Of a stretch of 64,000 nt of DNA, positions 3,427 to 55,251 are shown piece after piece (position 1 is the first letter of the stretch; every line of letters starts with the position of its first letter). The stretch spans positions 15,346,485-15,410,484 of the forward strand of contig NC_134027.1 of assembly GCF_964204645.1 (NCBI RefSeq). Direction: 5' to 3'. A program made the translations under genes and the position numbers. This stretch comes from Tubulanus polymorphus (taxonomy: Eukaryota > Animalia > Nemertea). The notes under the pieces were generated by a model. It was not told the origin of the DNA. It saw only the letters and a program-made list of their open reading frames with translations, and made no database searches.

Positions 3427-3437
3427 TAACTGAAGAA

Positions 3438-4125
3438 CAACCACCTGATTTTAATGAAACAAGTTTTAATGACGGTAATGAGCCAGAATATGATAATAAT
3501 TTAAATATGCCTGATTATATTAAAAATGCAAAATCACAATTAGATCCTGAAAATTTAGATCCAGATTTAGTAAAACAAGATTTAGATAATTTAAACAAAA
3601 TACCTAAATTAGAACGTATAATTGAAAATTCTAAACTTAACATAAATGATGGAGACGTTGGACCTTTAGCAGATAAATTGAAATTTTTAGATAATGGTAA
3701 ATGGTATTATCATTTGAAAGGTGATTATTATATTGATATCACTTATAAAAATAATAAAAATAAAATATTAACAAAATCAACTTTGAGTGATTTAGATCCA
3801 GATAGAATTAAAAGAATTAGTAATAGTAATGTAATAACTGATGTTTTAAAACAAGAATTAACTGATAATGATATAGACGTATTTAAACAAAGAATTAATG
3901 AATTATTTGAAATAATCAAAAAGAAATCAGAAACAGAAACGACTTCTGAACAGAATATAACTTCCAAAACTAGTAAACTTAAATCAAATAAAGTTCCAAT
4001 TGAAAAACTTTTACCGAATGGATTAATTGATGCAACAGATCAATAATTAGAAGATTTAAATATATTTTCTAATAAAGCAATTAGAGAAATTATTAGTATA
4101 AGAAATGAAGCTGATAAATTTGCAT
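3438..4125 (+). pseudogene. Relic of the Polinton 487-aa coiled-coil/membrane protein
   Basis: ORF 3507-4046 aligns with 33883-35346 (NPDLVKQ, LKFLD, YYIDI, FKQRINELFE, IEKLLPNGL); premature TAA, then truncated by deletion. Confidence 0.85.
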
Positions 4126-4127
4126 GA

Positions 4128-5746: not shown

Positions 5747-5848
5747 TTTAATATCAAATTTTCTATTAAAATTGATTTTAGAAGTTATTCAAATATAAAA
5801 TATTCATTTATATATGTTATTCATATTCATATATATGAATATTATTGG

Positions 5849-15428: not shown

Positions 15429-15997
15429 TCAGTCCACTTGGGACTTTAGTCCCAGTGGGCTATTGTGTTCACTTTTCGTCCGTCCGTCCGTCCATAGACG
15501 GAATCCAGTTATTTTGGGAAGTTTTGAAGATGCTTCAAGGTCATTGGTTTTAGTATGTGGCCATCAGGGGGCGTTGAATAATACAATAACTTAGTATTGC
15601 TATATTATATTTGTACCAAGGCATATTTTGTTACCATGATCAATTGCAAAGTTGTAGTTCATGACATCGTCTATGATTGTGGTGAGTTTTTAAGGACATT
15701 AGTTATTCCATATAGTTACCAGGGGGCGTTGAATAGTAGAAAAGCTTAGTTTTTCCTTATTAGATTGGTACCTAGGCATAGTTTGTTACCATGATCCATT
15801 GCAAAGTTGTAGATCATGACATCGTCTATGATTGTGGTGAGTTTTTAAGGACATTAGTTATTCCATATAGTCACCAGGGGGCGTTGAATAGTAGAATGGC
15901 TTAGTATTTCCTTATTAGATTGGTACCTAGGCATATTTTGCTACTATGATCAATTGCAAAGTTGTATTTCATGAAATGTACTACGATTGTGGTGAGA
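15425..15997 (+). mobile_element. Second, internally deleted and truncated copy of the HINE at 11291
   Basis: Identical 5' end CAGTCCACTTGGGACTTTAGTCCCAGTGGGC followed by three 155-bp units. Confidence 0.75.
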
Positions 15998-23300: not shown

Positions 23301-23673
23301 ATTCAAATGTACGTGATGTATTCGGTAAGCTATGTAAGCTTGTTCTTAAAAATACACTATGAATTTTCAATTTGTTCTGAACATAGTAGTTTATTTTTCG
23401 TAAATAAAATTTATATTTTAATTAAATAATTTCAAAATCTTTTCTGTGCCCTCTGCAACAGAAAGTTACTAAGGACTATTACATATTCAGATGTACGTTG
23501 ATAATTGATTTCAATCGTCCCTTCAAATAATTATATGAACATTATTTCGGAAAATGCAGGTGGCGCACAATCATAATACATACAACTCATCAAGCTGACG
23601 AGTCGTCTCCCTAACCAATGTTACAGACGGGTAAACAATCTACTCGACTCCACAGACAACTAAACGACCCGAG

Positions 23674-23794
23674 AGTAATTGGGAAAGTAGGCTTTCAGAT
23701 CAGAGGACGAGAGGACGAGACACCACTCATCACCACAAATAATTTTTTTTCTAACACTCATCACCACAAGTAATTTTTTTTCCTAATAAATGGG
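23674..23794 (+). repeat. Left terminal inverted repeat (121 bp), includes the pPolB start codon
   Basis: Exact reverse complement of 40093-40213; internal repeats GAGGACGA x2 and CACTCATCACCACAARTAATTTTTTTT x2. Confidence 0.97.
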
Positions 23795-25418
23795 GGAGAA
23801 TGAACACCAACTAGAAAACAATAATGTCAATAAAAATCAATATTATTGTCAATATTGTAAAAAATACATCGATACATCTAATAAAACACGACATGAAAAA
23901 ACTGCAAATCATATAAAAAATGTAATAGATTTTGAAACTACAGAAAATTCCAATGAAAGAAAAGAACGATTAGAAAATATGAATGTGAATGAAATAAAAT
24001 GTGAAGTTTGTGATGAATTTATAACAAAAAGGAATTATAATAGACATCTCGAAACAGAAAAACACCGTCAAAATTTGAGAAATAATGTTTTAGGAATAGA
24101 TTATTTTGATGATAAACCTCAACAAGTAAAAGAATCAACTTCAAAAACTAAATCCATTTCAAATAAACCTTACATGGAAAATGTTAGAATTTATATTGAT
24201 TCACTAGAAATAAAAGATACAATTGAAATCTTAGAAACATTACATAGTAAAATTGGTCCTGCAGCTATTATATTTAGATTTTTTAAAGGTACAACAATAG
24301 AAGATTATAGTAAATTTAATGAAATAATAGAAAAAATACTAGATTTGATAACAGATGTTGAATATCCAAAAATTAGTATCTCTGGGAAAGTAAGTTTTAT
24401 AAAGTCAGAAGAAAAAATGAATTATAATATTCAAACACACTCTGAAGAAATAATTTCAAAAACACAAATAAAAGAGAAGTTAGATAAAATATTAAATGAA
24501 TTTAAACGTCATATTGAAGAAAGATATTTTGAGGGTTCTGGCTTAACATTGAATGAAATTATATATTTAGATTTAAATGTTTATAATACAAAAAGGAATA
24601 AAACATCAAAAAGTAATAAAATGTTTAAAAATGATTCAAACTTTACAACAGAAAAGGATATGAAAGCATCAAGTTATATCAAATTACCGTTTACAACAAA
24701 AGCAGTAATAAATATTCAAAATGAAGATAATAAATGTTTTCTATGGTCAATTATTAGTTGCTTACATCCAACACAGGAAAATGTTTGTAGAATAACAGAT
24801 TATCGGAAATATGAAACATTATATAAAATTGATCAATATCCAGTAACTATAAAAATGATACCCAAAATAGAAAAAATTAATAATTTAAAAATAAATGTAT
24901 TCGAATTAATGCAATTACCAAAGACAAAAGGTGAAAATATTAAAGATTATACATTGGAAGCTTTATATTTAACAGAATATTATGATGATGAAAATGCTAT
25001 AGATTTGTTATATTACAAAAAAGATGAAAATGAACATTATATGTGGTTAAAACAAATTGATTTATTCTTTAGAACAGAAAGTGATCATCATAATAAAATT
25101 TATCTATGTAGAAAATGTTTATCCAAATTTATGACTGAGAATACATTATTAAAACATAAAGAATTATGTGATAATAAAGATTTTTGTAAATTAATAATGC
25201 CAACAGAAAAAGATTATAAATTGAAATTTACTAATCATAAATTTAAAAATATTGTTCCATTTGTAATTTATGGGGATTTTGAATCGTTGAATAAAGAATT
25301 AACTGATCAAGATAGAAAAGAAATATATAACAAAAAGCAATTATTAAAATCAATGGATAAAGGAAATGAATTAAATGAAGACACAATACAAGACCCACCA
25401 ATTATAAATACAATTTAA
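23790..25418 (+). CDS. polB: Protein-primed DNA polymerase B, N-terminal part (C2H2 zinc fingers, terminal-protein/OTU-like region, Exo I); ends at a single in-frame TAA
   Basis: CQYC..H and CEVC..H fingers, NEDNKCFLWSI...HYMW, VIYGDFES Exo I motif. Same frame as 25539-28853 (offset 1749 nt = 583 codons) and open between them. Confidence 0.9.
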   Translation: MGENEHQLENNNVNKNQYYCQYCKKYIDTSNKTRHEKTANHIKNVIDFETTENSNERKERLENMNVNEIKCEVCDEFITKRNYNRHLETEKHRQNLRNNVLGIDYFDDKPQQVKESTSKTKSISNKPYMENVRIYIDSLEIKDTIEILETLHSKIGPAAIIFRFFKGTTIEDYSKFNEIIEKILDLITDVEYPKISISGKVSFIKSEEKMNYNIQTHSEEIISKTQIKEKLDKILNEFKRHIEERYFEGSGLTLNEIIYLDLNVYNTKRNKTSKSNKMFKNDSNFTTEKDMKASSYIKLPFTTKAVINIQNEDNKCFLWSIISCLHPTQENVCRITDYRKYETLYKIDQYPVTIKMIPKIEKINNLKINVFELMQLPKTKGENIKDYTLEALYLTEYYDDENAIDLLYYKKDENEHYMWLKQIDLFFRTESDHHNKIYLCRKCLSKFMTENTLLKHKELCDNKDFCKLIMPTEKDYKLKFTNHKFKNIVPFVIYGDFESLNKELTDQDRKEIYNKKQLLKSMDKGNELNEDTIQDPPIINTI

Positions 25419-25538
25419 AAAGTTCATCAAAGAGCTGCTGCTTATGGAATTTACATCAAATCAAATTATCCCGAATTATATGAAAGTCAATATATTTCTT
25501 TTAGAGGTGAAAATGTAGTTAATGATTTTTGTGATAAA

Positions 25539-28500
25539 ATGATTGAATTAGAAAGTGATTTTACAAAATTATTAAACAAAAATAAAAGAATAGTTATGAC
25601 AAAAGAAGATGAAATTGATTTTAATTATGCAACTCATTGTTGTTATTGTGAAAAACGTTTTTATTCATTTGATAAAAGAGTTAGAGATCATGATCATTTG
25701 AATTCAAAATATCGTGGAGCTGCTCATGAAGATTGCAATTTACAAGCTAAGAAAGTTAATTTCGTACCAATATTATTTCATAATTTATCAGGCTATGATA
25801 CCCATCTATTTATAAAACAATTATCAGGAAAATTGGGCGCAATTAATCAAGAAATAGAAGAATATAATGCTATGAATGAAGCAAATGTAAGAAAATATGA
25901 TTTTAAACTATTAGCTAAAACATCTGAAAATTATATTTCATTTCAATTTGGTTGCATTAGATTTTTAGATTCTTATAGATTTCTAGCAAGTTCATTAGAT
26001 AATTTATCAAAAAGTTTAGTTGATAATGATTTTGTTATAACTCCATATTATTATCCAAATGAACAAGATTTTAAATTATTGAGATATAAAGGCGCAATTC
26101 CTTATTCATTTTATAAAACACACGATGATTTTAATGTAACAGAATTATTAAAAGATCAATTTTATGATAAATTAAAAGAGGAGTATGTGAAAGACGAAGT
26201 TTTTGATAGAACATTAAATATTTGGAACCATTTTAATATGAAAAATCATGGCGAATTAGTTGATTTATATTTAAAATCAGATGTTATGATATTAGCTGAC
26301 ATATTTGAAAAATTTAGAGAAGTTAATTTGAATCATTTTAATGTTGATCCTTGTTATTGCTACTCTAGTCCTGGTTTAACCTGGCAATGTGGTTTAAAAT
26401 ATACAAATGTAGAATTAGATTTATTAAAAGAACCAGATATGGTTTTATTATTTGAAAAATCAATTAGAGGTGGAATTAGTGGTGTTATGGGAGATAGGTA
26501 TTTTAAAGCAAATGATGAATATAAATTATTATATATTGACGCCAATAATTTATATGGTTGGGCAATGATGCAACCTCAACCATATAAAAATTTTATATTA
26601 ACAGAAGTTGAAAATGATGATAAAACTGATTGGGAAAGCGCAATTGCGAGTTTAAAAGATGAAGCACCAATTGGTTATTTCTTTGTAGTTGATTTAGAAT
26701 ATCCTGAAAATATAAAGTTTAAAACAAGAAACTTACCTTATTGCCCAGAACATTTAACTGTAGATGATAGTTATTTAAGTGAATACCAGAAGAAAGTAAA
26801 ACCGAAAGATCATGTTTTTACAGAAAAATTAATACTTACTCAAAATAATAAATACAATTATATTGTTCATTATAGAATGTTAAAATTTTATCTAAAACAA
26901 GGAATGAAATTAAAGAAAGTACATAGATATATTGAATTTAATCAATCAAAGTGGTTAGAAAAATATATAGATTTCAATACTCAACAGAGAACCATATCAA
27001 AAACAGATTTTGAAAAAGATTTCTTCAAATTAATGAACAATAGTTTTTATGGTAAAACATGTGAAAATATTAGAAATAGAAATGATATTGAATTAGTAAA
27101 TAATTCTGAACGATTGAGACACCTACAATCAAGTCCTAGACATTTAGGAAATAAAAGATTTGAAGATTATTTAACAGCAGTAAAATTAAAAAGAACGTCA
27201 ATGAAATTTAATAAACCCATTTTCATTGGTTCAACAGTTTTAGAAATATCAAAATTATTAATGTATGATTTTTATTACAATGTATTACAACCATTGTTTG
27301 GGGAAAAACATATAGAAATTCTGTACTTCGATTCTGTAACGGCCGACACCCCAATATTATTAAAATGTAATAATAAAATATTAGTAAGAAGAATTTCAGA
27401 AATAATTCCAAAACAAAATGAATGTTATATTTCATATGGAGAAAAAGAATTAATACAAATAAATGGTTTAATAGATGTTTGGACAAGAAATGGATGGAAA
27501 AAATTAAAGAATATTATTAGACATAAAACAAATAAGAAAATCTATAGAGTTAGAACTAAATTAGGGTTTGTAGATGTTACTGAAGACCACAGTTTAATTA
27601 AACAAAATGGTGATGAAATAAAACCAACTGATATAAAAATTGGAGATGAATTATTACATAAAAGATTTTTCCCAAGAATGAATCATATGTCATTTGATGA
27701 AATAATTAATAATATTTATAATATAGAACCTGAAACATTGGAAGAAAAAGAATATTTTATCAAAGGATTTTTCATGGGTGATGGTTCAGCAGGTGTGTAT
27801 AAATATGTTTGGGGTAATAAATATTGTTGGTATTTATGCAATCAAGACTTAAAATTATTAGAAAGAATTAAGAAATTCTGTGAAGAAGTTTATTCACATA
27901 AAACATTTAGAATCATGGATGTTATGAAATCATCAGCAGTTTATAGAATACTTGTAAATAATCCTAAAGATTTTGCTATAGAATATAATGATGAATTCTA
28001 TATTCATGCAATAGTGAAAAGTAATACTTCAACTAAAGAAAAAATAGTACCAGATTATATATTAAATTCAGAATATAATCTTAGAAAATGGTTCTTCATT
28101 GGGTTCTACGCAGCCGATGGTACTAAAAAATTTATAAAGGATAAAACGATAACCTTTGCACAGAAAGGAAAATGTGCAATAAGTGGGTTAAATGTGTTAT
28201 GCAGTTCATTAGGCTTCAATATGAATATTGGATTGATTAAATCTAAACCAAATTGCTTTAATTTAAGGCATGTAGAAAAAGATTTAACTGAAGAAGTTAA
28301 AGATTTATTTGAAATATATAACCCAACTGACTATGTTTATGATTTATCAACAGATGATGGAACATTCAATTCTGGGTTCCCATTAATCCAAAAAAATACG
28401 GATGCGTACATACTAAAAATCAAGACAAATGACATAACAAAAGACTTAAAAACATTAAAACATCATTTTGATTTTAGCAATTATCCTAAAGATCATGAAC

Positions 28501-28853
28501 TATTTAGCAATGATAATAAAAAGATTCCTGGTAAATTTAAAGATGAATTAGGAGGTGATGAAATGATTGAATTTGTTGGGATAAGAAGTAAAATGTATAG
28601 TTACAGAACAAAAGATCATGAAGCTAAAAAGTTAAAAGGAATAACAAAACATGTGGTTGATAAACATATAGAATTTCAAGATTATATAAAGTGTTTATAT
28701 AAATCAATTGTAATGAAACACAAGATGAATTGTTTAAGATCAGAAAATCATGAGATGTACATTAATGAAGTTGAAAAAACTAGTTTAAATCCATTTGATG
28801 ATAAAAGGCATATTTCAGATGATGGTATAAAAACATTACCTTATGGTTATTAA
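25539..28853 (+). CDS. polB: Protein-primed DNA polymerase B, C-terminal part (endonuclease VII/HNH, Exo II/III, polymerase core) containing an intein
   Basis: CCYC...VRDHDHL...RGAAHEDCNL, FHNLSGYD, FLDS, YIDANNLYGWAM (motif A), KLMNNSFYGK (motif B), YFD|TD (motif C split by intein), GKFKDE, RSKMY, KLKGI. Confidence 0.95.
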   Translation: MIELESDFTKLLNKNKRIVMTKEDEIDFNYATHCCYCEKRFYSFDKRVRDHDHLNSKYRGAAHEDCNLQAKKVNFVPILFHNLSGYDTHLFIKQLSGKLGAINQEIEEYNAMNEANVRKYDFKLLAKTSENYISFQFGCIRFLDSYRFLASSLDNLSKSLVDNDFVITPYYYPNEQDFKLLRYKGAIPYSFYKTHDDFNVTELLKDQFYDKLKEEYVKDEVFDRTLNIWNHFNMKNHGELVDLYLKSDVMILADIFEKFREVNLNHFNVDPCYCYSSPGLTWQCGLKYTNVELDLLKEPDMVLLFEKSIRGGISGVMGDRYFKANDEYKLLYIDANNLYGWAMMQPQPYKNFILTEVENDDKTDWESAIASLKDEAPIGYFFVVDLEYPENIKFKTRNLPYCPEHLTVDDSYLSEYQKKVKPKDHVFTEKLILTQNNKYNYIVHYRMLKFYLKQGMKLKKVHRYIEFNQSKWLEKYIDFNTQQRTISKTDFEKDFFKLMNNSFYGKTCENIRNRNDIELVNNSERLRHLQSSPRHLGNKRFEDYLTAVKLKRTSMKFNKPIFIGSTVLEISKLLMYDFYYNVLQPLFGEKHIEILYFDSVTADTPILLKCNNKILVRRISEIIPKQNECYISYGEKELIQINGLIDVWTRNGWKKLKNIIRHKTNKKIYRVRTKLGFVDVTEDHSLIKQNGDEIKPTDIKIGDELLHKRFFPRMNHMSFDEIINNIYNIEPETLEEKEYFIKGFFMGDGSAGVYKYVWGNKYCWYLCNQDLKLLERIKKFCEEVYSHKTFRIMDVMKSSAVYRILVNNPKDFAIEYNDEFYIHAIVKSNTSTKEKIVPDYILNSEYNLRKWFFIGFYAADGTKKFIKDKTITFAQKGKCAISGLNVLCSSLGFNMNIGLIKSKPNCFNLRHVEKDLTEEVKDLFEIYNPTDYVYDLSTDDGTFNSGFPLIQKNTDAYILKIKTNDITKDLKTLKHHFDFSNYPKDHELFSNDNKKIPGKFKDELGGDEMIEFVGIRSKMYSYRTKDHEAKKLKGITKHVVDKHIEFQDYIKCLYKSIVMKHKMNCLRSENHEMYINEVEKTSLNPFDDKRHISDDGIKTLPYGY
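27333..28397 (+). other. Intein (355 aa) with LAGLIDADG homing endonuclease at pPolB motif C
   Basis: N-extein LYFD | SVTADTPILLK (block A) ... VDVTEDHSL (block B TxxH) ... FIKGFFMGDGS and FFIGFYAADGT (LAGLIDADG blocks C/E) ... YVYDLST (block F) ... IQKN (block G) | TDAY C-extein with +1 Thr. Confidence 0.95.
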
Positions 28854-30148
28854 AATGGATCTATATCATCAAACTCGAAATCACTATTGGCTTCTTCATT
28901 TTCATTTAATTGTTCAGGTTCTTCTTCCATTCCATTTTTCTCATTTAAATAAAGTTCTATCTTGTTCCACATTTCATCTCGCTCTCTTTGTTTCTTTTTG
29001 TTTGTTAATTCATCAAATGGAATTATAATATCTAGGTTTAAATAATTTACAATCTTATTTAAAAAGAATTCATAATTTATTGAATCTGTTATTCTATTTT
29101 CCAAATGATACATTAATATTTGTTTAAATATTTTTTTTATATTTTCCATATCTTCTTCTGTTAATTTAGGTTTTTCATAATAATCGTTAAATAATAAATA
29201 TAAATACATTTTCTTTTGTTTTGTGTTAAATGTTGGTGGAATAATTGTTTTTATAATATCTTTTTTAGTTATTTCACCATTTTTATTTTCTATTATTTTT
29301 ATTTTTTCAAGCCATTGCATATATTCTGGTGTATGATCTTCTATAGAAAATATTTTAAAAATTTCATCTAGATAATTTAATTTTGGTTCTATGAGAAAAT
29401 CTCTATTTTTTTCTTCACCCCATAAATTCTTTTGCCATCCACATTCAACACAAAATAACACAGTACCTTCTTGCCTTAAGGTCGCATAACTACATTGTGG
29501 GCATTTTTGTTTATAATTTCTTGGTAATAGATCTTCATTAAGCTCTTGGTATTTTCTTACGTTTTCTTTATGTTTTATTGTTCTATTATGTAGATTTGAA
29601 TTACTTGTTGTAATAATCAATTTACAATATTTACAATAATATGTTTTTCTTGTTAATTCATTATATTGTTTTTCTAACTTTTCAACTGTTTCTTTATTAT
29701 CTGGTAACGTTTTCTCATATTTTATTTTTTCTAATAAATTATTTTTTCTTTCATTGAATTCAGTTTCAAATTTATTAGAAATTTTATCTATATGTGCTTT
29801 ACGAAATTGATGATTCTCCCAATCTTCTATATTTTCAGGGCTATATTTTACTTGACAAGGCTCACAGAAATGATCTTTTATATTATCCTTATCATAGAAT
29901 AAGAAAGGTCTTTTCCAAATAACTTCAGGTTCAACTTCAGCAGAATTACTATCAACATTAGCTGTTGCGCCATTAATTCTACACTTCTCTGAATGTTTTT
30001 TAACATAATTTCTTGAGAATAATTTATTACATTTTGGACAGTTTATTTTAGGGGGTTTATAATTTTCATCATGTTTTTTCATATGTCGAGCCATATTACT
30101 TTTTCTTAGAAGTTCACCACAAATTTCGCATGCTATCTTCTCATCCAT
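28850..30148 (-). CDS. Multi-zinc-finger protein with C-terminal VLTF3 (poxvirus A2-like late transcription factor)-like domain
   Basis: N-terminal C2H2/C2HC fingers, then CPQC-x13-CVECG ribbon, then PKLTEE...IFKQI...SINYEFFLNKIVNYL...KKKQRERDEMWNKI, matching the remembered NCLDV VLTF3 pattern F.QI...NFLSYSYVL.K...L...K....W.KI. Confidence 0.65.
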   Translation of the reverse strand: MDEKIACEICGELLRKSNMARHMKKHDENYKPPKINCPKCNKLFSRNYVKKHSEKCRINGATANVDSNSAEVEPEVIWKRPFLFYDKDNIKDHFCEPCQVKYSPENIEDWENHQFRKAHIDKISNKFETEFNERKNNLLEKIKYEKTLPDNKETVEKLEKQYNELTRKTYYCKYCKLIITTSNSNLHNRTIKHKENVRKYQELNEDLLPRNYKQKCPQCSYATLRQEGTVLFCVECGWQKNLWGEEKNRDFLIEPKLNYLDEIFKIFSIEDHTPEYMQWLEKIKIIENKNGEITKKDIIKTIIPPTFNTKQKKMYLYLLFNDYYEKPKLTEEDMENIKKIFKQILMYHLENRITDSINYEFFLNKIVNYLNLDIIIPFDELTNKKKQRERDEMWNKIELYLNEKNGMEEEPEQLNENEEANSDFEFDDIDPF

Positions 30149-30217
30149 TTATTAAGGAAAAATTTTATTAAAATTAATTTTTAGTGATGAGCGGTAATTT
30201 TTTTTATGTTATAAATA

Positions 30218-30979
30218 ATGGTAGAATTAAAAGAATACAGAATATTTGTTGATTCTAGAAAACTTACAAATTATAAATCTCATAATTTACTAGTACAATT
30301 AGATAGAGAATTTAAGAATTGTGTAGATTTAAAATTAGTTAATATAAGTTTATGTAATTCTTTTTACAATGTATCGGATAAGTCTATTGAACATAGAATC
30401 TTTTTAATTAATATTAGAAATAAAAATGAATGGGTCTATATATATTTAAAACCAGGGTTATATAATTTAGATACATTAGCACAAGAAATTAATAGAAAAG
30501 CCTGGCACAAATTAGGTAGTAGTTCTGGGTTTAGTATTAGATTTTTAAAAAGTGAGAGTTCTGATAGAATAAAGATAAGGTTGTCTAATAGTGAAAAACA
30601 TAAAATTATGGTAAAAAAACCTATAGCTAAACTGTTAGGAATTCTTCCAGATAGATCTTTTACAAATATTGACGCTACTACACCAAACTTAATACCTTAC
30701 ACACATTTTTATATTTATTGCAATTTAATCGATCCTACAAAAACATTCGAAGCAACTAAAGATATAACTTGTAATTCTGGTTTACTAAACATTTTACCAT
30801 TGAAGAATGTTAAAGAATTTGGAACGCAAATAAATTATAATTTAACAGAATGTGATTTCAAACCATGCATTCCTAGTTTTAATAATTTTAGATTAGAAAT
30901 AAGAAATCATAATGGATACTTAATTGATTTGAATAACTTTCCTGTAATTTATGAATTAGTTATAAGATGTAAAGAGTAA
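30218..30979 (+). CDS. Putative minor capsid (penton, single jelly-roll) protein
   Basis: IFVDSR, L..ISL.NSFYNVS, LKPGLYNL, FYIYCNLID, LEIRNHNGYLIDLNN.PV.YEL motifs typical of Polinton minor capsid proteins. Confidence 0.75.
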   Translation: MVELKEYRIFVDSRKLTNYKSHNLLVQLDREFKNCVDLKLVNISLCNSFYNVSDKSIEHRIFLINIRNKNEWVYIYLKPGLYNLDTLAQEINRKAWHKLGSSSGFSIRFLKSESSDRIKIRLSNSEKHKIMVKKPIAKLLGILPDRSFTNIDATTPNLIPYTHFYIYCNLIDPTKTFEATKDITCNSGLLNILPLKNVKEFGTQINYNLTECDFKPCIPSFNNFRLEIRNHNGYLIDLNNFPVIYELVIRCKE

Positions 30980-30996
30980 TTTTTCTCACTATATAA

Positions 30997-31338
30997 ATGA
31001 ATATAACTGTTGGACCGAGTATATGTTTTGGGTTTGATTTTAAACATGGTAAAGAAATGAGAATTAAACTAAATGATGTAATTACTGATATAAAAAGTAA
31101 ATCATTTAACAATGCATCAATGATTGATAAAGAAAAGTATAATATAGAAAAAGTAATTGATTTAATTAAATCACCTTTAGAATATTATGGATTAAATGAA
31201 GATGGAATTATTGAAGATATTAAAAACATATTATCCAAAATATATGATAATCATAAAACTAGTAATGAAATAAATGTTGAATTAATCATAAATAAGTTAA
31301 CTAAATATTTTGAAGATAGTAATTTTTTTGATAAATAA
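30997..31338 (+). CDS. Hypothetical Polinton protein (113 aa)
   Basis: ORF in the packed gene array with TAAATG start. Confidence 0.7.
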   Translation: MNITVGPSICFGFDFKHGKEMRIKLNDVITDIKSKSFNNASMIDKEKYNIEKVIDLIKSPLEYYGLNEDGIIEDIKNILSKIYDNHKTSNEINVELIINKLTKYFEDSNFFDK

Positions 31339-31560
31339 ATGAGTGATAATAAGTGGATAATAACTGGATTATATAATGGCGCATTACTATCAGTTGGAAC
31401 TGTTGGTTATTCAATGGTATTAAAAAAAGTATTCAAAATGGGAAGTGTTAATGTTGATAGATTTGATATAAATGATATTTTGAAATTAACGTTAGCAGTT
31501 ACTTTATCTAATTTAACTATTGATTATTTGGAAAAACAAAAATATATTCCTCCCATATAA
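31339..31560 (+). CDS. Small hydrophobic protein (73 aa)
   Basis: Two hydrophobic segments; TAAATG start abuts the previous stop. Confidence 0.7.
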   Translation: MSDNKWIITGLYNGALLSVGTVGYSMVLKKVFKMGSVNVDRFDINDILKLTLAVTLSNLTIDYLEKQKYIPPI

Positions 31561-31584
31561 ATGCATAATTTTTTTGCTAAATAA

Positions 31585-32007
31585 ATGGCTTCTGCAATTA
31601 TAACTATTATAGGATCGGCAATTGTTAACGCTTTAGCATTTACTGGTGGTGGTTATTTATTTAAACATATTGATAAAAATAGTTCATTAGGAGAACAAAG
31701 AAGACATAACTTAGCGTTAGAGAAATACAATAAAGCAGCGGAAGAATATAGAGAAAAGAGGCAAAACTATATGGATTACATCAATAAAGAATTATATGAT
31801 CAGAAGATTTCACATAGAGATTTTCAATCAGTTGATGATGCAATGAGTTTATATAACGCAGTAACAAATAAAGAAAAATTACATCTATACAAACCTAAAT
31901 TATCAGATTATTATACCCCAAGTAAAGAACAACAGAAATATGAAATAATATGGATTTTAGGTGGAACTGTTATTGTTATATTTGTTGCTTATAAGTTTAC
32001 TAATTAG
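31585..32007 (+). CDS. Membrane protein (140 aa; N- and C-terminal hydrophobic helices, central coiled coil)
   Basis: MASAIITIIGSAIVNALAFTGGGYLF ... IIWILGGTVIVIFVAY. Confidence 0.75.
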   Translation: MASAIITIIGSAIVNALAFTGGGYLFKHIDKNSSLGEQRRHNLALEKYNKAAEEYREKRQNYMDYINKELYDQKISHRDFQSVDDAMSLYNAVTNKEKLHLYKPKLSDYYTPSKEQQKYEIIWILGGTVIVIFVAYKFTN

Positions 32008-32026
32008 TAATTTTTATTCTAAATAA

Positions 32027-32461
32027 ATGGAAGATAAAGTTGATAATATTGATATTATTCCTCATGATATAAATAAAACTAAATTAAAAACATATTTAGA
32101 AAAACAAATATTAGAATTTGAAAGTGACTTAAAGATAAAAAAGAAAAAATATTTAAAAAGTAAAATTATATATTATTTGATTATAAGTGGTTCGGTTACA
32201 ATTAGTTCTGTAATAACATTTTTAGCAATATTCAGTCCATTAACACCTTTAGCTATATCAATTGGTGTATTAGGATTAAGTTCAAGTGTTTTAACTGGTA
32301 TAAGTTCAAAATTAAATATAAAAAGTAATAAAGAAAAAATTAAAACTAATATAAAAGAAATTAATAAATTAAAGAACACACTAGATTATATAATAAGTTT
32401 AAATGGTCATATAACAGTTGAAGAACAAGATAAATTATTAAAAGAATTAATAAATTATTAA
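32027..32461 (+). CDS. Two-TM coiled-coil protein (144 aa)
   Basis: Hydrophobic hairpin IIYYLIISGSVTISSVITFLAIF / LAISIGVLGLSSSVLTGI flanked by Lys-rich helices. Confidence 0.75.
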   Translation: MEDKVDNIDIIPHDINKTKLKTYLEKQILEFESDLKIKKKKYLKSKIIYYLIISGSVTISSVITFLAIFSPLTPLAISIGVLGLSSSVLTGISSKLNIKSNKEKIKTNIKEINKLKNTLDYIISLNGHITVEEQDKLLKELINY

Positions 32462-32477
32462 TTTTTTAATTATATAA

Positions 32478-33866
32478 ATGGTAGATAGTTTTCCAAAAGC
32501 TTTCCGATATAATAAATCAATTAAATATAATATTCCAGCAATAGATTTTAATAAAGATATTACATATAGAAATGAAGTTTTAGATTCATTAATTGATTTA
32601 TATATTTATGTTACTGAAACTAATAATTTTAATGCAAAGATGGAAAATATATTTCATATATATTTAATTAATTTTAAAAAATTGAAAGATGAAAAACAAT
32701 GGTTATTAAAATCTAATATGAAGTATTGGCAGAATCAATTAAATTTTGCTGTTTATTGTGCAACAACAGGATGTGGAATTAGTTGGAATGATCATTTGAA
32801 TAATTCTAAATATAAACTAATTCAAAGTTTATTTAGATTTCATACATACTTTCAAATCAGAATGATATTAAATGAATTAGAGTGCGCTTTACCAGGATCT
32901 AGGTATTTCAAAGAATTAGATAATAATATTAATTTATCAAAGTTTTATAAGATTTGTAATGAATTTAATATAGATATAAATAATTCTGATTTTAGAACAA
33001 AAATTGGAACAATAAGATCACTTCCATGCCCTAAAAAGATTGCAGAATATTGTGCACTTCCCATACCATCTAATAGTTTTTATAATATCTATAATAATAA
33101 ATTAGGTTATGGTAAAATAGAAACAAAAGATTTAGAAACATTAAATTTCAATAAATTACCGAAATTTTATGATCATTTAAAACAAGAAAACAATAATGGT
33201 TGGGTATATTTTATTTTAGAGAATAGTGAAGGTTTTACTAAATCAGGTATAGAAAGAATAAATCAATCTATTAGAACTTATTTGATTTGTATTTTAGGTG
33301 CGCAAGTTGAAACAAGATCACCGATAATTGGAAATTTGAATACATCATTCGATACACAAAAACAATTTAAAGTTTTATTTGAAGATTCAATTCATAATGA
33401 TAAAAATAGATCTATTCCAGAAAACATTATAAGATATCAAAATTATTTAGATAAATCTCATGTAAGACTTAATTATTGTATAGGCCCTAATCTATTAATT
33501 ATTTCTAATGATTTAGTATTGAAGATGGGAAATATAATTGGTTATAATAATCTAATTAAAACTGCAACAATAAATAATTCATTTGGATTGAATGATATAA
33601 ATAAAAAGATTATTACTGCTCCAAAATTAATGGAGGGTGAAAAAAATAAAAAACACATTCAATCAACAGAAACTAAAACTAATAATATTAAATTGGTTAA
33701 TGATTCCAAAATAAAAGATTACAATACATCAGAAAATATAAAAACTGATAATATTCAACATGATATAATTAAACTAAATGATGATAATAAATCCCATGAA
33801 AATACTAAATTAGCTATAACTTGTATAGGAATTGTAATCGGAGGAATATTATATTTTAAATTTTAA
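32478..33866 (+). CDS. Conserved Polinton protein of unknown function with C-terminal TM anchor (462 aa)
   Basis: Long ORF, WQNQLNFAVYCATTGCGISW motif, C-terminal LAITCIGIVIGGILYF; homologous relic at 1-2684. Confidence 0.8.
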   Translation: MVDSFPKAFRYNKSIKYNIPAIDFNKDITYRNEVLDSLIDLYIYVTETNNFNAKMENIFHIYLINFKKLKDEKQWLLKSNMKYWQNQLNFAVYCATTGCGISWNDHLNNSKYKLIQSLFRFHTYFQIRMILNELECALPGSRYFKELDNNINLSKFYKICNEFNIDINNSDFRTKIGTIRSLPCPKKIAEYCALPIPSNSFYNIYNNKLGYGKIETKDLETLNFNKLPKFYDHLKQENNNGWVYFILENSEGFTKSGIERINQSIRTYLICILGAQVETRSPIIGNLNTSFDTQKQFKVLFEDSIHNDKNRSIPENIIRYQNYLDKSHVRLNYCIGPNLLIISNDLVLKMGNIIGYNNLIKTATINNSFGLNDINKKIITAPKLMEGEKNKKHIQSTETKTNNIKLVNDSKIKDYNTSENIKTDNIQHDIIKLNDDNKSHENTKLAITCIGIVIGGILYFKF

Positions 33867-33882
33867 TTTTTTTATTATGTAA

Positions 33883-35346
33883 ATGGATGTAGAAGGTGGA
33901 GAAGATTATGAAATGGGAGAAATGGGAAATAATAATGAAGGATATATTGATGATGAACCACAACCTGATTTTAATGAAACTAATATTGATAATGATGATG
34001 AATCAGCATATAATTCTAATTTAGCAGATAGTGGTTCTAAAGGTCAATCAACAGATGAATTTGATAGAAGAACTAGATCGAGAATAAATCCTGAAAATGA
34101 AAATCCAGATTTAGTAAAACAAAATTTAGAATATAATGAATATATTTATAATTTCAAACCTATATTTGAAAAATCTGGATATAATATCAATACCAGAGGC
34201 GCTAGACTTTTAGTACAAGAATTAAAGTTTTTAGATGGTGAATATTATTATCGTTTGAAAGATGATTATTATATTGATATCTCTTATAAAAAACAAGAAA
34301 AAATATTAGCAGAATCAACTTTGCTTAAGTTAGACCTATCTAGAATTAAAAGAATAAGAAATAGTAATGAACCAGAAGATGTAACACAAGAAGAAATTAT
34401 TAAAAATGAAAGAGTATTTAAACAAAGAATTAATGAATTATTTGAAACAATCGATAATAATTTAGAAACAGAAACAACTTCTGAACAGAATATAACTTCC
34501 AAAACTAGTAAACTTAAATCAAATAAAGTTCAAATTGAAAAACTTTTACCGAATGGGTTACTTGATGCAACAGATCAAGAATTAGAAGATTTAGATATAT
34601 TTTCTGATAAAGCAATTAGAGAAATTATTAGTATAAGACTTGCATCTGATAAAATTGCGCATGATAAAAGTATAAGAGATTTTAAAATTAGAACTTTAGA
34701 AAAAGAAAGAACTGATAAAAATAAAGAAATAGAACAATTAAAATTAGATAGAGATAATAAAGTTATTGAAGAAATTGAATTTAAAAACAGAAATGCATAT
34801 TTAGAAAAAGAAATTGATGATTTAGAATATAACATAGAATTACAAAAAGAAGAAATTAAATTATTATTAAAATCATATGATTATAATATAAATAGATTAA
34901 AAGTTATTTTTAAAGATTTGTTGATAAAACCAAATTCTGAAATATCATTGAAAGACAGAATAAAATTATTATTTAAACTAGAAGGTATAACAATTCTTTC
35001 AATTCTAACAACTCTAACTATGGTATTTACAACAATAGGTTTAGCAATATCAAATGCTTTGAAATCTACTCCTACTCCAAATAAACCAGATAAACCTCCA
35101 GGTAATAATTCTATACAAGATAAAGTTAAAGATGGTTTAAAGAAATTAGCAAAATATTTATGGGAACTATCTAAAAAATCTGCTGCAGCTTTACCAGGAG
35201 TTATTGCTTCAATTGTTGGTTTTATATTGAAATCTGCAGGAAACATTATTAACTTTGCTGCTGAACATATTATTTTATTTTTAATTACGGTTGTAAGTGC
35301 TATTATTTTTGGGTTAGTGAATATGATATCAAAAAATATCAAGTAA
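33883..35346 (+). CDS. Acidic/coiled-coil protein with C-terminal TM segments (487 aa)
   Basis: Acidic N-terminus, heptad-rich middle, three hydrophobic segments at the C-terminus; homologous relic at 2700-4125. Confidence 0.8.
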   Translation: MDVEGGEDYEMGEMGNNNEGYIDDEPQPDFNETNIDNDDESAYNSNLADSGSKGQSTDEFDRRTRSRINPENENPDLVKQNLEYNEYIYNFKPIFEKSGYNINTRGARLLVQELKFLDGEYYYRLKDDYYIDISYKKQEKILAESTLLKLDLSRIKRIRNSNEPEDVTQEEIIKNERVFKQRINELFETIDNNLETETTSEQNITSKTSKLKSNKVQIEKLLPNGLLDATDQELEDLDIFSDKAIREIISIRLASDKIAHDKSIRDFKIRTLEKERTDKNKEIEQLKLDRDNKVIEEIEFKNRNAYLEKEIDDLEYNIELQKEEIKLLLKSYDYNINRLKVIFKDLLIKPNSEISLKDRIKLLFKLEGITILSILTTLTMVFTTIGLAISNALKSTPTPNKPDKPPGNNSIQDKVKDGLKKLAKYLWELSKKSAAALPGVIASIVGFILKSAGNIINFAAEHIILFLITVVSAIIFGLVNMISKNIK

Positions 35347-35387
35347 ACCATGATAAAAAATAAATAATTAATTTTTTTGTTAAATAA

Positions 35388-36635
35388 ATGAGTGGGAGTT
35401 ATATAAGTCCTATAAAGATTTCTAGAATATCTAACGCTATTAAAGCAGAAAGATCACATCATATAATTACTCATAACCCTTCAAATATTAATCCCGATGA
35501 AACTTTATATGTTAGAATTCCTAGATTAACACAAAATACTTTTTATGTTCCAAATAGTGTTTATTTATCAGCTGATATAAAAGTAATCGGTAATAATAAT
35601 AATTATGTTGTTGATAATGTTGGAAGATATTTGATTAAAAAGTTAACAATAAAGATTGGTCCGGAAACAGTTTTCTCATTAGATGATTATAATTTATTTA
35701 TGCATTATAAAGATTTATGGTTAACTAAAGAAAATAGAAATAATATGATATTTCAAGGAATTCAATCAGAAAACCAAAATAAATTAAGATCAGAAGCTAA
35801 TAGCGCAATATTAACAAATGATGTAGATAAATTGATAAAAAGTATATATGGAAGCAAATATAAAATTCCATTAGACTTTGAATTGATAAATAATAATGCA
35901 CCTTTATATAAATACGCAATTCAAGAAGATATTATATTTGAGATAACATTTGCTCCTGTAAATGAAATTGTATTATCTAGCGTTAATAAAGATATGAGTT
36001 ATAAATTATCGAATATATGTTTAGAATATGACACAGTAACTGATGAAAATATTTCAAGTATAATTCAAACTCAATACAATCAAGGGTTTTCATTATTATA
36101 TGATTATATTGATAAATTTAAAACTGTAACTATTAATGCAAATGATGAAATAATTAATGAGAATATTAACTTCCCAAGAAGATCTATTAAAGGTATATTA
36201 ATATTTTTTACCATTGGAACGTATACTAATGGTGCAATAAATGTTGATAATTATTATAATCCTGAAATAACAAAAGTAGAAATAACTATCGAAGGAATAG
36301 CAAATAAAATATTTTGTCAAGGAATGAGAATGATAGATCAATGGGTAGAAATTAAAAAACATTTTATGAATGAAAAAGTAAAATCATTTGAAAATTGTAA
36401 CATTAATCAAATTGATTATTATACCGGCAATAAATATGCATTATGGTTAGATTTTAGAACAACTGAAGATAACTTATTACATGGTTCTGGGAAAAAATTA
36501 CAAAATACAAAAGATGGGATCCAATTATTCATGAAAAAGAATAAAGGAATCAAAAATTTTAAAATGCACATTTATATTATATCTGATGCACAATTAAATA
36601 TTGTAAATTCACAATTAGATAGTATTCAATATTAG
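35388..36635 (+). CDS. Putative major capsid protein (double jelly-roll, 415 aa)
   Basis: Size and beta-rich pattern (ITHNPSNI...LYVRIP.L....VP.SVYLSADI, YKIPLDF, LSNICLEYD, NINFPRRSIKGIL, ALWLDFRT, MHIYIISDA) as in invertebrate Polinton MCPs; adjacent to integrase and ATPase. Confidence 0.75.
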   Translation: MSGSYISPIKISRISNAIKAERSHHIITHNPSNINPDETLYVRIPRLTQNTFYVPNSVYLSADIKVIGNNNNYVVDNVGRYLIKKLTIKIGPETVFSLDDYNLFMHYKDLWLTKENRNNMIFQGIQSENQNKLRSEANSAILTNDVDKLIKSIYGSKYKIPLDFELINNNAPLYKYAIQEDIIFEITFAPVNEIVLSSVNKDMSYKLSNICLEYDTVTDENISSIIQTQYNQGFSLLYDYIDKFKTVTINANDEIINENINFPRRSIKGILIFFTIGTYTNGAINVDNYYNPEITKVEITIEGIANKIFCQGMRMIDQWVEIKKHFMNEKVKSFENCNINQIDYYTGNKYALWLDFRTTEDNLLHGSGKKLQNTKDGIQLFMKKNKGIKNFKMHIYIISDAQLNIVNSQLDSIQY

Positions 36636-36665
36636 AAATATAAAGTTAAAATTAAGGATATATAA

Positions 36666-37793
36666 ATGGGTGGTAAAAAAACTCCTAATACTAAAGAACA
36701 ATATTTAAGAAATTTATATTACAACCCTGAGAGTTCGGTTGCTTATTCTTCTACCAAAAATATATGGAGTAAAGTAAAACAAGATAAATTAGATAAGATA
36801 ATCCCACAAAATGTAGTTAAATATAAAGATATAAATGAATTTATGTTAGAACAACCAACATATACAACACATAAAAAAATTGTTAGAAAATATAAAACTC
36901 GTAAAACTATGGTAAGTTATGTAGATCAACAGTGGCAAGGAGATTTAATTGATATGAAAAATGTTAAGAAAGCTAATGATGATTATTGGTGGTTATTGAA
37001 TATAATTGATATTTTTAGTCGTTATGTATGGAGTTTCCCACTTTATAGAAAAGATGCTGTACAAACATCAAATGTTTTAAGAAAATTTCTTTCAGGTGGT
37101 AAACTAAAACCAGAAAAAATACAATTTGATGATGGAAAAGAATTTGATAATTCATTAGTTCATGGACTTTTAGATTTTCATAATATTAAATATTTTTCGA
37201 CAAAATCGGATAAAAAAGCAGCAGTTGTTGAACGATTTAATAGAACATTGAGAACAAGAATGTCAAAATATTTCACAGCAAATAATACTTATAAATGGAT
37301 TGATGTTTTACCAAAATTTATAGAAGGATATAATAATTCTTATCATTCTTCTATTGGAATGAAACCTATTGATGCTAGAAAACCTGAAAATGCTGAAATT
37401 GTTTGGAATAATTTATATGGAGCATTTCTTGTTGTTGATTTTGGTGAACCTAAATTTAAAGTTGGTCAAAATGTTAGAATTTCTAAGTATAAAAAGATAT
37501 TTGACAAAGGATACGATCGAAATTTTACTAGAGAAATATACAAAATAAAAAAGGTAATAACAACAAAACCATATGTCTATAAATTAGAAGATTTAGATGG
37601 TGAAGAAGTTGATGGCTACTTTTACGAAGAAGAATTAAGTTTAACTACTGAAAATCTAGAACAAGAATATAAAATTGAAAAAGTACTAAAAACAAAAACT
37701 GTTAAAAGAAAAAAATATTCTTTAGTAAAATGGGTTGGATGGCCAGATAAATTCAATGAATGGATATTATCAAGTAAAATTAAAAATATATAA
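36666..37793 (+). CDS. int: Retroviral-like (rve) DDE integrase with C-terminal chromodomain
   Basis: WQGDLIDM, IDIFSRY, IQFDDGKEF, AVVERFNRTLR, YNNSYHSSIGMKP; chromodomain YKIEKVL...LVKWVGWPDKFNEWI. Confidence 0.95.
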   Translation: MGGKKTPNTKEQYLRNLYYNPESSVAYSSTKNIWSKVKQDKLDKIIPQNVVKYKDINEFMLEQPTYTTHKKIVRKYKTRKTMVSYVDQQWQGDLIDMKNVKKANDDYWWLLNIIDIFSRYVWSFPLYRKDAVQTSNVLRKFLSGGKLKPEKIQFDDGKEFDNSLVHGLLDFHNIKYFSTKSDKKAAVVERFNRTLRTRMSKYFTANNTYKWIDVLPKFIEGYNNSYHSSIGMKPIDARKPENAEIVWNNLYGAFLVVDFGEPKFKVGQNVRISKYKKIFDKGYDRNFTREIYKIKKVITTKPYVYKLEDLDGEEVDGYFYEEELSLTTENLEQEYKIEKVLKTKTVKRKKYSLVKWVGWPDKFNEWILSSKIKNI

Positions 37794-38360
37794 ATGAATA
37801 AGGAATTATTTATATTTGAGCCTCATAATATGTTAATTTCTGGTGTAACAAATTGTGGAAAAACTTATTTTATATTAAATTTATTAGAAACTGTTTATGA
37901 AAACTATTTTGATAATATAGTATTATTTTGTCCAACATATGAATTTAATCAAACTTATGATAGAAATATTACTAGAAATAATAAATTTATTATATTAAAT
38001 CCTAAAACAGTAAAAGAAAATTTAGATAATTGTATAAAAATAGCAATTGATATTTATAAAGGATCAAATACATTATTTATCATAGATGATTGTGCAAATT
38101 TACATGATTCTAAAATTAGAGAAAGCGAGTTATGTTATTTAGCTTTCTCTGGAAGACATTTTGGGATAACAACTTGGGTTTTAAATCAAAAATATAATTC
38201 AATTGTTAAAGATTTTAGAGAAAACATTAGATTTCTAGTTTTATTCTACAATAAAGATAGAAAATCGATGAAAAATGCACTTGAGGAAAATGATATTATT
38301 CCACATGATTTACATAATGAATATATGGATAAGTTGAAAAATATTAAAAGATCAAAATGA
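37794..38360 (+). CDS. A32/FtsK-like genome packaging ATPase (possibly ending at a premature TGA; frame stays open to 38402)
   Basis: Walker A GVTNCGKT, Walker B LFIIDD, GRHFGITTWVLNQ arginine-finger/motif. Confidence 0.92.
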   Translation: MNKELFIFEPHNMLISGVTNCGKTYFILNLLETVYENYFDNIVLFCPTYEFNQTYDRNITRNNKFIILNPKTVKENLDNCIKIAIDIYKGSNTLFIIDDCANLHDSKIRESELCYLAFSGRHFGITTWVLNQKYNSIVKDFRENIRFLVLFYNKDRKSMKNALEENDIIPHDLHNEYMDKLKNIKRSK

Positions 38361-38402
38361 CTATTTAGATTACAACACCCATTTAAATATGAATTTATTT
38401 AA

Positions 38403-38660
38403 ATTCAACTAGCTTGTTAATCTAGTTGAATTCTAGTTATTGGTAGTTGTAACAAAAATCAACTAGATTTAACAATATTTTAACTAGCTTGTCAATCTAG
38501 TCTAATTCTAGTTACATTCTAGTTGAATTCTAGTTGTTAGTAGTTGAAACAAAAATCAACTAGATTTAACAAGAAATAAACAAAAACAACAATATTTCAA
38601 CTAGCTTGTTAATCTAGTTGAATTCTAGTTACATTCTAGTTGAATTCTAGTTGCAACAAC
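38403..38660. repeat. Intergenic CTAG-rich repeat/palindrome array inside the Polinton
   Basis: 15 CTAG cores counted by eye; three copies of AACTAGCTTGTYAATCTAGT and runs of TTCTAGTT(GAA/ACA) at 11-bp spacing. Confidence 0.85.
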
Positions 38661-38684
38661 ACAACTAATTTATTTGTTTTATAA

Positions 38685-39290
38685 ATGGGAGGTGAAAAGA
38701 AAATAAAATCTAAAAATGGTGATGTTCCAATTGAAAAAACTTTAGATGATTTAGGAATAACAGAAACAAAATTAACTCCAGATGATGGTGCTTTAAATAA
38801 TGTTACAACAAATAATAATTATGAATATTATCTTTATTGTAAACATCAATTAGAAATATTAATAGCATCTGGAAAATGTAAAAATTTTGTCGGTAAAAAT
38901 TTAACTTATAATGAATTAGATACAATGAAATCAGATGAAATTATTAGATTATTTAAGATTTATGAATCCGCGAGAACAGCTAGAATTAATGACGCGATAT
39001 CAGAAAATGTAGTAAAAGGTTATAGTAAATTATGTAATTATATACTACCAATTGAAAATGAAAATAGATTATATTACGATTTAAAAAATGATTATTTAGT
39101 TATGACTGAATTAAATAAATGGATTGGATATTTATCATTTCAATTAGGTGGATTTATGACATTATTATCAACCGGGGTTATAACATTTTCAAATATTGAA
39201 AGTAAAAATATTTCTATAATAAATGAGCGAGGTGAAAGAAGTGAAGGAATTAACTGTGAAGAAAAAACCGAGAACTCAGAAACAAATTGA
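38685..39290 (+). CDS. Hypothetical Polinton protein with hydrophobic C-terminal segment (201 aa)
   Basis: ORF with TAAATG start; WIGYLSFQLGGFMTLLSTGVITF. Confidence 0.75.
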   Translation: MGGEKKIKSKNGDVPIEKTLDDLGITETKLTPDDGALNNVTTNNNYEYYLYCKHQLEILIASGKCKNFVGKNLTYNELDTMKSDEIIRLFKIYESARTARINDAISENVVKGYSKLCNYILPIENENRLYYDLKNDYLVMTELNKWIGYLSFQLGGFMTLLSTGVITFSNIESKNISIINERGERSEGINCEEKTENSETN

Positions 39291-39591
39291 ATGGTCTCGA
39301 CAATTAGGAATTAAATCACAAGAATATAAAAAAGCTGTAAAAGAAAAAATAAGTAATAAAAATGTTAATAAAAATGGTGAAAATATTGTTATTTCTACTC
39401 CTTCTGATAGTAGAATATTTGATAAATATCTATATTTTACAGTTGGATTTGTAATTGTATTCATTTTGATTGGGTGTAATTGGTATAAGAAATCAAATAA
39501 AATTCATGATAGTAATAATTCTGAAACAACTGCTATCAAAAATGAAAATACTTCTGAAATTCCAAAATTGATAATAAAAAAAATGGATTAA
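39223..39591 (+). CDS. Basic single-TM protein (122 aa)
   Basis: KKKPRTQKQIEWSRQLG basic motif; TM YLYFTVGFVIVFILIGCNWY; TAAATG start overlapping the previous ORF. Confidence 0.75.
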   Translation: MSEVKEVKELTVKKKPRTQKQIEWSRQLGIKSQEYKKAVKEKISNKNVNKNGENIVISTPSDSRIFDKYLYFTVGFVIVFILIGCNWYKKSNKIHDSNNSETTAIKNENTSEIPKLIIKKMD

Positions 39592-39770
39592 TATTTTAGA
39601 AAAAAGCAAAAAAATAATTTTTTTAAATTAATTGAATATCTCACTACTTTTGTCTATCACTGTGTGGGTGCTGTTTATGGCACCATCTATGTGGAGCAAT
39701 TAAATTGTCCAGATAAGTCATTTCGGATTCTAGATATTCATTATTTCTATTAATTTATTTTTTTTTAAAT

Positions 39771-40097
39771 TTAATCAACAATTTCTAAATCATGATGACC
39801 GTCTTCATTTTTCCCATGATATATTATTTTAAATCCTACTAAATCTTTCAATTCCTCCGTACTCAATGAAACCCATTTATCGGGTAAAAACACTTTAAAT
39901 TCTCGCGATGTACTAACATTACAGTAGCTTAAATTAGCTGATACTTTCTCTCCATATTTAGTTTTTATCTTTTCTAATTTCAATATTTTATGTTCAATTT
40001 CTTTTGTAACATCAACTAACTTTTTTATTTCAAATTGTTTTTTTGCTGGTTTTATTCTGTTATTTATTGTTGCTAAGAATGCTTTTCTATCTCCCAT
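39771..40097 (-). CDS. Small basic protein starting inside the right TIR; possibly OB-fold ssDNA-binding
   Basis: ATG within the TIR; TKYGEKV...FKVFLP..W...IIYHG beta-rich pattern; function is a guess. Confidence 0.6.
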   Translation of the reverse strand: MGDRKAFLATINNRIKPAKKQFEIKKLVDVTKEIEHKILKLEKIKTKYGEKVSANLSYCNVSTSREFKVFLPDKWVSLSTEELKDLVGFKIIYHGKNEDGHHDLEIVD

Positions 40098-40213
40098 TTA
40101 TTAGGAAAAAAAATTACTTGTGGTGATGAGTGTTAGAAAAAAAATTATTTGTGGTGATGAGTGGTGTCTCGTCCTCTCGTCCTCTGATCTGAAAGCCTAC
40201 TTTCCCAATTACT
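40093..40213 (-). repeat. Right terminal inverted repeat (121 bp)
   Basis: Exact reverse complement of 23674-23794; followed by TSD CCCGAG. Confidence 0.97.
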
Positions 40214-40387
40214 CCCGAGTAACCCCCAATTTGACTATAACTATAAATTATGTTATGTTAAACCGCATTGGTGTTACTTGACACATCAAATGCGTATCCC
40301 GTATTGATATATTTCTTTTATCCACTTTTTAAATTATGAATAGCACGCCTGCTCAGAAAACCCGTTATCGCTGCTTTGCAGCTATAT

Positions 40388-47315: not shown

Positions 47316-55251
<7,936 letters not shown>

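Follow-up and report, generated by a model that had tools for sequence, protein, structure and literature searches.

An intact pol-c intein, predicted to self-splice and likely to spread by homing, in the protein-primed DNA polymerase of an animal Polinton

The window, by which we mean the whole stretch of 64,000 nucleotides that was analysed, holds a complete Polinton, a virus-like integrating element, and the polymerase gene of this element is split by an intein. The element and its bordering repeats are laid out as follows, in the coordinates of the window.

23668..23673, no strand: left 6-bp target-site duplication (TSD), CCCGAG
23674..40213, + strand: whole Polinton, 16,540 bp, 23.8% GC, with ends 5'-AG...CT-3'
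23674..23794, + strand: left terminal inverted repeat (TIR), 121 bp, perfect
23790..25418, + strand: N-terminal part of the protein-primed PolB (pPolB), with Zn fingers and Exo I, closed by an in-frame stop
25539..27332, + strand: N-extein part of pPolB, with an endonuclease-VII-like Zn motif, Exo II, Pol A, Pol B and the first half of Pol C
28398..28853, + strand: C-extein of pPolB
35388..36635, + strand: likely double jelly-roll major capsid protein, 415 aa, a lead taken from feature-level likeness to capsid clusters
36666..37793, + strand: retroviral-like integrase with chromodomain (rve E 1.1e-8, Chromo E 6.4e-5)
37794..38360, + strand: A32-like packaging ATPase (Pox_A32 E 1.3e-13)
40093..40213, - strand: right TIR, 121 bp, perfect
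40214..40219, no strand: right 6-bp TSD, CCCGAG

Terminal repeats within a target-site duplication, a pPolB (Pfam PF03175, E 1.4e-19), a retroviral-like integrase and a packaging ATPase are together what identifies a Polinton/Maverick, and the terminal-repeat and target-site part of this definition is that given in the accessible text of PMC8097293. The Atlas matches of the polymerase all stay below 0.9. The putative capsid ORF reaches Atlas feature scores of 0.97-0.98 to capsid-like clusters, scores which have low recognition value; it has zero matches in Pfam, NCBIfam or PHROG, and nothing was found in the viral contigs queried with it. No adenain-type maturation protease was matched among the ORFs of the element in the Pfam scan, and this protein may be either absent or too divergent; Rfam gave 0 matches.

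Downstream of the Polinton lies a CIDE-N gene, with exon 1 at 47316-47424 and exon 2 from 49801, parted by a 2.4-kb GT-AG phase-1 intron, the frame of exon 2 being recognized by Pfam at E 6.4e-12. CIDE-N is known from cnidarians through mammals (PMC2426694). By this spliced gene, and by the LINE, integrase and satellite repeats around it, the host is an animal. The repeats deserve a description of their own. At positions 1-5800, pieces of a related Polinton (69-91% identity with the element) lie in scrambled order, with a LINE reverse transcriptase ORF (740-2134) set among them, and the pPolB piece found there stops short of the intein site. A 31-bp satellite whose inverted core is GCGACAA/TTGTCGC, repeated up to about 90 times, forms arrays at 9518-11289, 14043-15424 and 41717-44534. 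Tandem repeats of 155 bp, inside a dispersed element, are found at 11836-12590 and 15565-15996; every unit holds CACCAGGGGGCG, in which we presume a resemblance to the CTCF core motif. Finally, an intact integrase/transposase ORF of 396 aa (Pfam rva_4, E 1.3e-34, and HTH_21) runs along the minus strand at 59746-60936.

The intein itself shows the following anatomy.

27333..28397, + strand: intein, 355 aa, a Hint domain with a two-motif LAGLIDADG homing endonuclease, at the pol-c site
27333..27335, + strand: Ser1, the N-terminal nucleophile (block A)
27579..27590, + strand: block B, TEDH (T83, H86), unchanged in 40 aligned inteins
27756..27785, + strand: LAGLIDADG motif 1 (D150)
28092..28121, + strand: LAGLIDADG motif 2 (D262)
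28335..28346, + strand: block F, VYDL (V335, D337)
28392..28400, + strand: terminal Lys-Asn (K354-N355) and the +1 Thr of the C-extein

It makes up residues 599-953 of a 1104-aa ORF (25539-28853), begins with SVTADTP, is flanked by ILYFD and TDAY and has no stop inside, so that the catalytic Pol-C motif of the polymerase is interrupted as YFD|TDA. An alignment of 40 inteins shows no variation at T83, H86, D262, D337 and N355, and hardly any at S1 and D150. The intein passes the TIGR01445 intein_Nterm profile (32.2 bits for a cut-off of 24.5) and stands above the cut-off of Pfam LAGLIDADG_3 (PF14528; 28.2 bits against 22.5), while Pfam Intein_splicing (PF14890) matches it with an E of 1.7e-7, yet at 31.6 bits, below its cut-off of 35.8. 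The AlphaFold2 model of the intein, with a pLDDT of 92.8, finds in Foldseek endonuclease-bearing inteins as its best PDB matches (TliVMA at E 1.7e-16, PI-PkoII, PI-PfuI and PI-SceI), and also matches the I-DmoI fold. The initial annotation, which had read a complete set of splicing blocks, two LAGLIDADG motifs and an uninterrupted frame in an insert splitting the pPolB catalytic motif, was right in each of these points.

The penultimate residue is Lys354 and not the usual histidine. A penultimate His is usual in class-1 inteins without being universal, and other inteins with another residue there are known to splice. Among 261 distinct inteins collected here, 115 end in KN and 129 in HN; Lys354 is, on these counts, a common variant within this intein family, and a terminal KN, which had been offered as a signature of the Mimivirus intein, has to be dropped as a hallmark of that virus. 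The position of the insert is equally well defined: it sits between the first Asp and the Thr of the Pol-C motif, and it is homologous to other pol-c inteins, which bears out the pol-c assignment made at the outset. The corresponding point in Mimivirus and archaeal PolBs, YGD|TDS, has been named position III or pol-c (PMC549080, in the part available). Judged by its residues, profiles and modelled fold, the insert is a real, canonical pol-c-type class-1 intein with a LAGLIDADG endonuclease, and it is predicted to splice.

The gene that harbours it is, at this copy, damaged elsewhere. An in-frame stop at 25416-25418, between Exo I (ORF 23790) and Exo II (ORF 25539) and absent from the initial annotation, breaks pPolB upstream of the intein, and three relatives cover both ORFs with single proteins at about 70% identity. 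A full-length polymerase can probably not be made from the copy present in the window.

Other copies can be followed in raw reads. Run X5, of which about 12% (1,934 Mb) was used, shares its species label with the best holder, and its reads were compared at 80% likeness. Twenty-six of them join 27319 to 28396 and 36 join 27319 to 28407; as the first join has 11 intervening bases and the second 22, both skip a net 1,065 nt, which is precisely the length of the intein. Further reads break off at 27319 (135) and at 28407 (109), and contigs from X1, X2 and X3 likewise break at 27319, while 253 X5 reads cover 27323 and run on into the intein. Read depth is 101-266 over the intein versus 290-740 over the exteins, and, supposing that all copies are chromosomal, each gigabase of genome size would contain about 120 inteins, a figure that free viral DNA would lower. 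Within the intein no indel is present in at least 30% of the X5 reads, and among 26 listed read differences, a biased subset drawn from the 40 best-supported of 258 rows, 14 are synonymous versus 23% expected (p 8e-4) and 0 create a stop. Intein-plus and exactly intein-minus copies thus coexist within one species.

How such a pattern came about may be understood in more than one way. We hold that the intact pol-c intein of this Polinton pPolB, predicted to be self-splicing, is likely to be spreading via LAGLIDADG cutting of intein-free Polinton copies. The chief alternative, which we consider rather improbable, is a single entry into an ancestral pPolB followed by vertical inheritance with repeated precise loss, the intein still splicing and no longer homing. 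The intein is present in at least 7 of the 120 extein relatives compared (6 recognised by pattern, and P0315), and 14 of the 15 best-scoring ones, the nearest (82%) included, are empty with a contiguous D-T-D site. In two protein clusters, of 136 and 121 members, intein-bearing and empty proteins are both present among the 15 listed for each. An extein tree of 44 rows (13 plus and 31 minus), built on the 330 residues that precede the site, calls for 9 presence changes, of which at least 7 are forced by supported branches, shuffles averaging 11.3; vertical descent would require many losses, each of exactly 1,065 nt. As a separate observation, D-C-D replaces D-T-D at Pol C in 36 of the 120 extein relatives (P0224-P0321), none of which has the intein, and this variant is possibly a homing-resistant form of the site, to be regarded as a candidate from its sequence.

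In some pairs presence differs between near-identical polymerases. P0138 and P0141 differ at 1 of the 469 extein residues compared, and the intein is in just one of them. Between P0002 (plus) and P0131 (minus), members of the same cluster, 4 of the 10 residues next to the site are different on either side, against 2 of 290 farther upstream, a peak of differences that is expected if the flanks were co-converted from a divergent donor and that vertical descent leaves unexplained. This peak was seen in one of the two plus/minus protein families, and was absent between the window and P0205-P0207. Vertical descent also leaves P0004 unexplained: its intein is 47% identical to that of the window (E 2e-90), and its pPolB has no significant BLASTP match to the 598-aa N-extein of the window (best E 0.59). 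The conservation of both nuclease Asp residues is a further point against an intein that would have ceased to home.

Several observations speak for descent nonetheless. Within pPolBs of the endonuclease-VII type the intein tree broadly mirrors the extein tree, and identities to the window track each other, with intein/extein values of 64/55, 49/46, 47/42 and 42/40%. An AU test did not reject a placement of the P0004 intein outside the other eight (p 0.143), and the GC content of the intein, 0.257, is in line with that of the exteins, 0.245 and 0.254. Taking all this together, homing among Polintons remains, in our estimation, quite probable.

The question of where the intein came from is a distinct one. 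Out of 3,822 candidates, a protein search with the intein retained 309 proteins with an E of 0.001 or lower, 120 of them listed. Among the matches listed, the top five are pPolBs or pPolB fragments, at 64, 49, 48, 47 and 47% identity, two further pPolB inteins stand at 42 and 41%, and the RNA-primed PolB inteins of giant viruses and large phages reach about 42% at best. The pPolB inteins form one clade in each of three trees: 10 of 79 rows with support 100/100 (22 of 101 rows having been removed because they were near-copies or short), 9 of 73 rows with an SH-aLRT of 100 in a quick tree under a mixture model, and 9 of 21 rows with support 100/100. This clade sits on a long stem, and its sister may lie among giant-virus-type PolB inteins, T4-like phage PolB inteins or one thymidylate synthase intein; the PolB inteins of giant viruses and those of T4-like phages stand at about the same distance, so that either group may have been the ultimate donor. 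That the nearest relatives are other Polinton-type pPolB inteins, in one clade, points to an ancient entry into Polintons and a later spread from one to another, the direction of transfer being inferred, as the trees have no root and their rows were chosen for likeness to the intein of the window. The same intein family also occurs at D|T-D-like sites in topoisomerase II, thymidylate synthase, the DNA polymerase delta of Chloropicon and T4-like phage PolBs (P0006, P0024, P0103, P0120 and P0012/P0013/P0020).

It had been proposed at first that the insert closely resembles the Mimivirus PolB intein and that it passed between a giant virus and this very polymerase. The link to NCLDV PolB inteins stands at the level of the family, by site and by homology, and its specific Mimivirus part is not supported, as the pPolB inteins make up a clade of their own. 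A recent direct move from a Mimivirus-like giant virus into the lineage of this Polinton is, to our mind, very improbable. It would account for the pol-c site and the intein family being common to giant-virus PolBs, with 34-42% identity to many of them, and for the best BFVD matches being NCLDV PolB inteins (a phycodnavirus PolB intein at 30%, then other NCLDV PolBs). It has against it that other pPolB inteins are closer, up to 64% over the full length, in a fully supported, long-stemmed clade, that the Megavirus PolB intein is 28% identical, and that the intein lacks any contrast in composition with its exteins. Of five GVMAG identifiers, the one placed via the taxonomy supplement belongs to Imitervirales IM_06 and is not among the nearest. 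From viral and metagenome loci, 117 in all with the metagenome scan covering 16 of 64 parts, 83 inteins were obtained, of which 0 had a pPolB-type flank.

A last alternative, that the intein-bearing element is a contaminant or an assembly chimera outside the animal chromosome, is hardly credible: although no long read was seen across the host-element junction, the flank is a multicopy repeat and adintovirus contamination of assemblies is documented (PMC8502044, accessible portion), the perfect TIRs are enclosed in a perfect 6-bp TSD, 253 X5 reads connect 23667 to 40214 with the same 6-base ambiguity, the arrangement of a target without the element, the element is present in two studies of organism A, and fragments of a related Polinton at 1-5800 and the spliced CIDE-N gene from 47316 lie on the same stretch. 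The flank in question (23000-23673) has a read depth of about 345 in X5 and is a repeat, so that the empty-target reads are probably other copies of that repeat. The intein-bearing Polinton is integrated in an animal chromosome, in keeping with the initial annotation.

We may now describe how homing among Polintons, the reading we prefer, would operate. After translation, Ser1 would undergo an acyl shift, the chain would be transferred to the +1 Thr, and cyclization of Asn355 would release the intein, along the standard class-1 route, the chemistry of which is established (PMC7765530, as far as its text is available); excision would rejoin the D-T-D motif. Because the intein splits a catalytic motif, the polymerase would depend on splicing, and because non-splicing copies would lose replication, the intein would be held under selection. 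The nuclease, for its part, would cut the empty pol-c site, and repair off an intein-plus template would copy the intein in, as in the homing cycle summarized in the accessible part of PMC10710043, in which an empty allele is cut and repaired from an intein-plus template. Homing may go on between chromosomal copies, or between free viral genomes when a cell is co-infected. Historically, one old jump may have brought a pol-c intein from an RNA-primed PolB, that of a giant virus or of a large phage, to a pPolB; spread and loss among Polintons would have followed, with at least one crossing between pPolB classes that are very distant from each other. A bolder extension would see here an unrecognised clade of true inteins on animal Polintons, splicing in animal cells, with an endonuclease that converts intein-free chromosomal copies in the germline today, that is, a natural homing drive inside a multicopy element of the nuclear genome; we put it forward tentatively, and are inclined to doubt it more than to believe it.

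What appears to be new is a Polinton-specific clade of pol-c inteins, multicopy and polymorphic in an animal genome. In the full-text literature covered by our search, outside of which lie most subscription journals, Repbase, InBase and the supplements of Polinton papers, no description was found of an intein in a pPolB, a Polinton, a Maverick or an adintovirus. Reviews call inteins absent from metazoan genomes (PMC8529194, relevant extract), and this view is to be amended, as an intact intein is present in many copies in an animal genome, yet in a virus-like element and not in a host gene. The pol-c allele is extended to protein-primed polymerases, and Polintons are linked with the gene pool that large DNA viruses draw on, a point of interest for the question whether giant viruses and animal Polintons meet in the same cells. 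With plus and minus copies side by side, the homing cycle can be put to a direct test in an animal genome. The pPolB intein clade is also a source of new mesophilic inteins and LAGLIDADG nucleases, which may work in animal cells.

Among known systems, the nearest are the pol-c inteins of NCLDV PolBs (Mimivirus R322, prasinovirus-type, Megavirus), with which ours has in common the insertion point, YGD|TDS there and YFD|TDA here (PMC549080, available part), the Ser1/Asn/+1 Thr chemistry, a LAGLIDADG nuclease and detectable homology, as well as a similar length (351 aa for the Mimivirus R322 intein, from the same part of that paper, and 355 aa here). Unlike them, it interrupts a protein-primed PolB, which is encoded by an integrating element of 16.5 kb residing in an animal chromosome, and it belongs to a clade restricted to pPolBs, apart from NCLDV pol-c inteins, its best identity to an RNA-primed PolB intein being about 42%. 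A survey, in the portion at hand, places the inteins of eukaryotic viruses in four NCLDV families and unclassified viruses (PMC5784728), and an insect iridovirus carries one (PMC549080, available part). Nuclear scaffolds of Klebsormidium, Tetrabaena and a labyrinthulomycete likewise hold inteins in endogenous viral DNA polymerases (PMC10710043, accessible part); the hosts there are algae and a protist, whereas here the host is an animal, the Polinton is multicopy and plus and minus alleles coexist.

A second comparison is with Polintons/Mavericks (adintoviruses) that carry HNH or VSR domains in their pPolB (10.1101/2023.08.22.554363; PMC11071308, both in part), with which the present element shares pPolB, integrase, ATPase, TIRs and a 6-bp TSD. 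The pPolB class of the window has an endonuclease-VII-like domain too, just as the HNH- and VSR-bearing pPolBs have nuclease domains. The HNH/VSR inserts are described as nuclease domains, with 0 mentions of 'hint', 'LAGLIDADG' or 'homing' in the portion of text available for 10.1101/2023.08.22.554363; unlike them, the insert studied here is a complete splicing domain with a LAGLIDADG nuclease inside the catalytic motif. It has been suggested that endonuclease insertions in pPolB stem from intein invasions (PMC11071308, relevant section). Finally, the Hedgehog/Hint domains of animals have in common with this intein the Hint fold and a related chemistry (PMC5784728, PMC7765530, in the parts accessible); unlike it, they are not inserted in frame between two exteins, and they are without a homing endonuclease.
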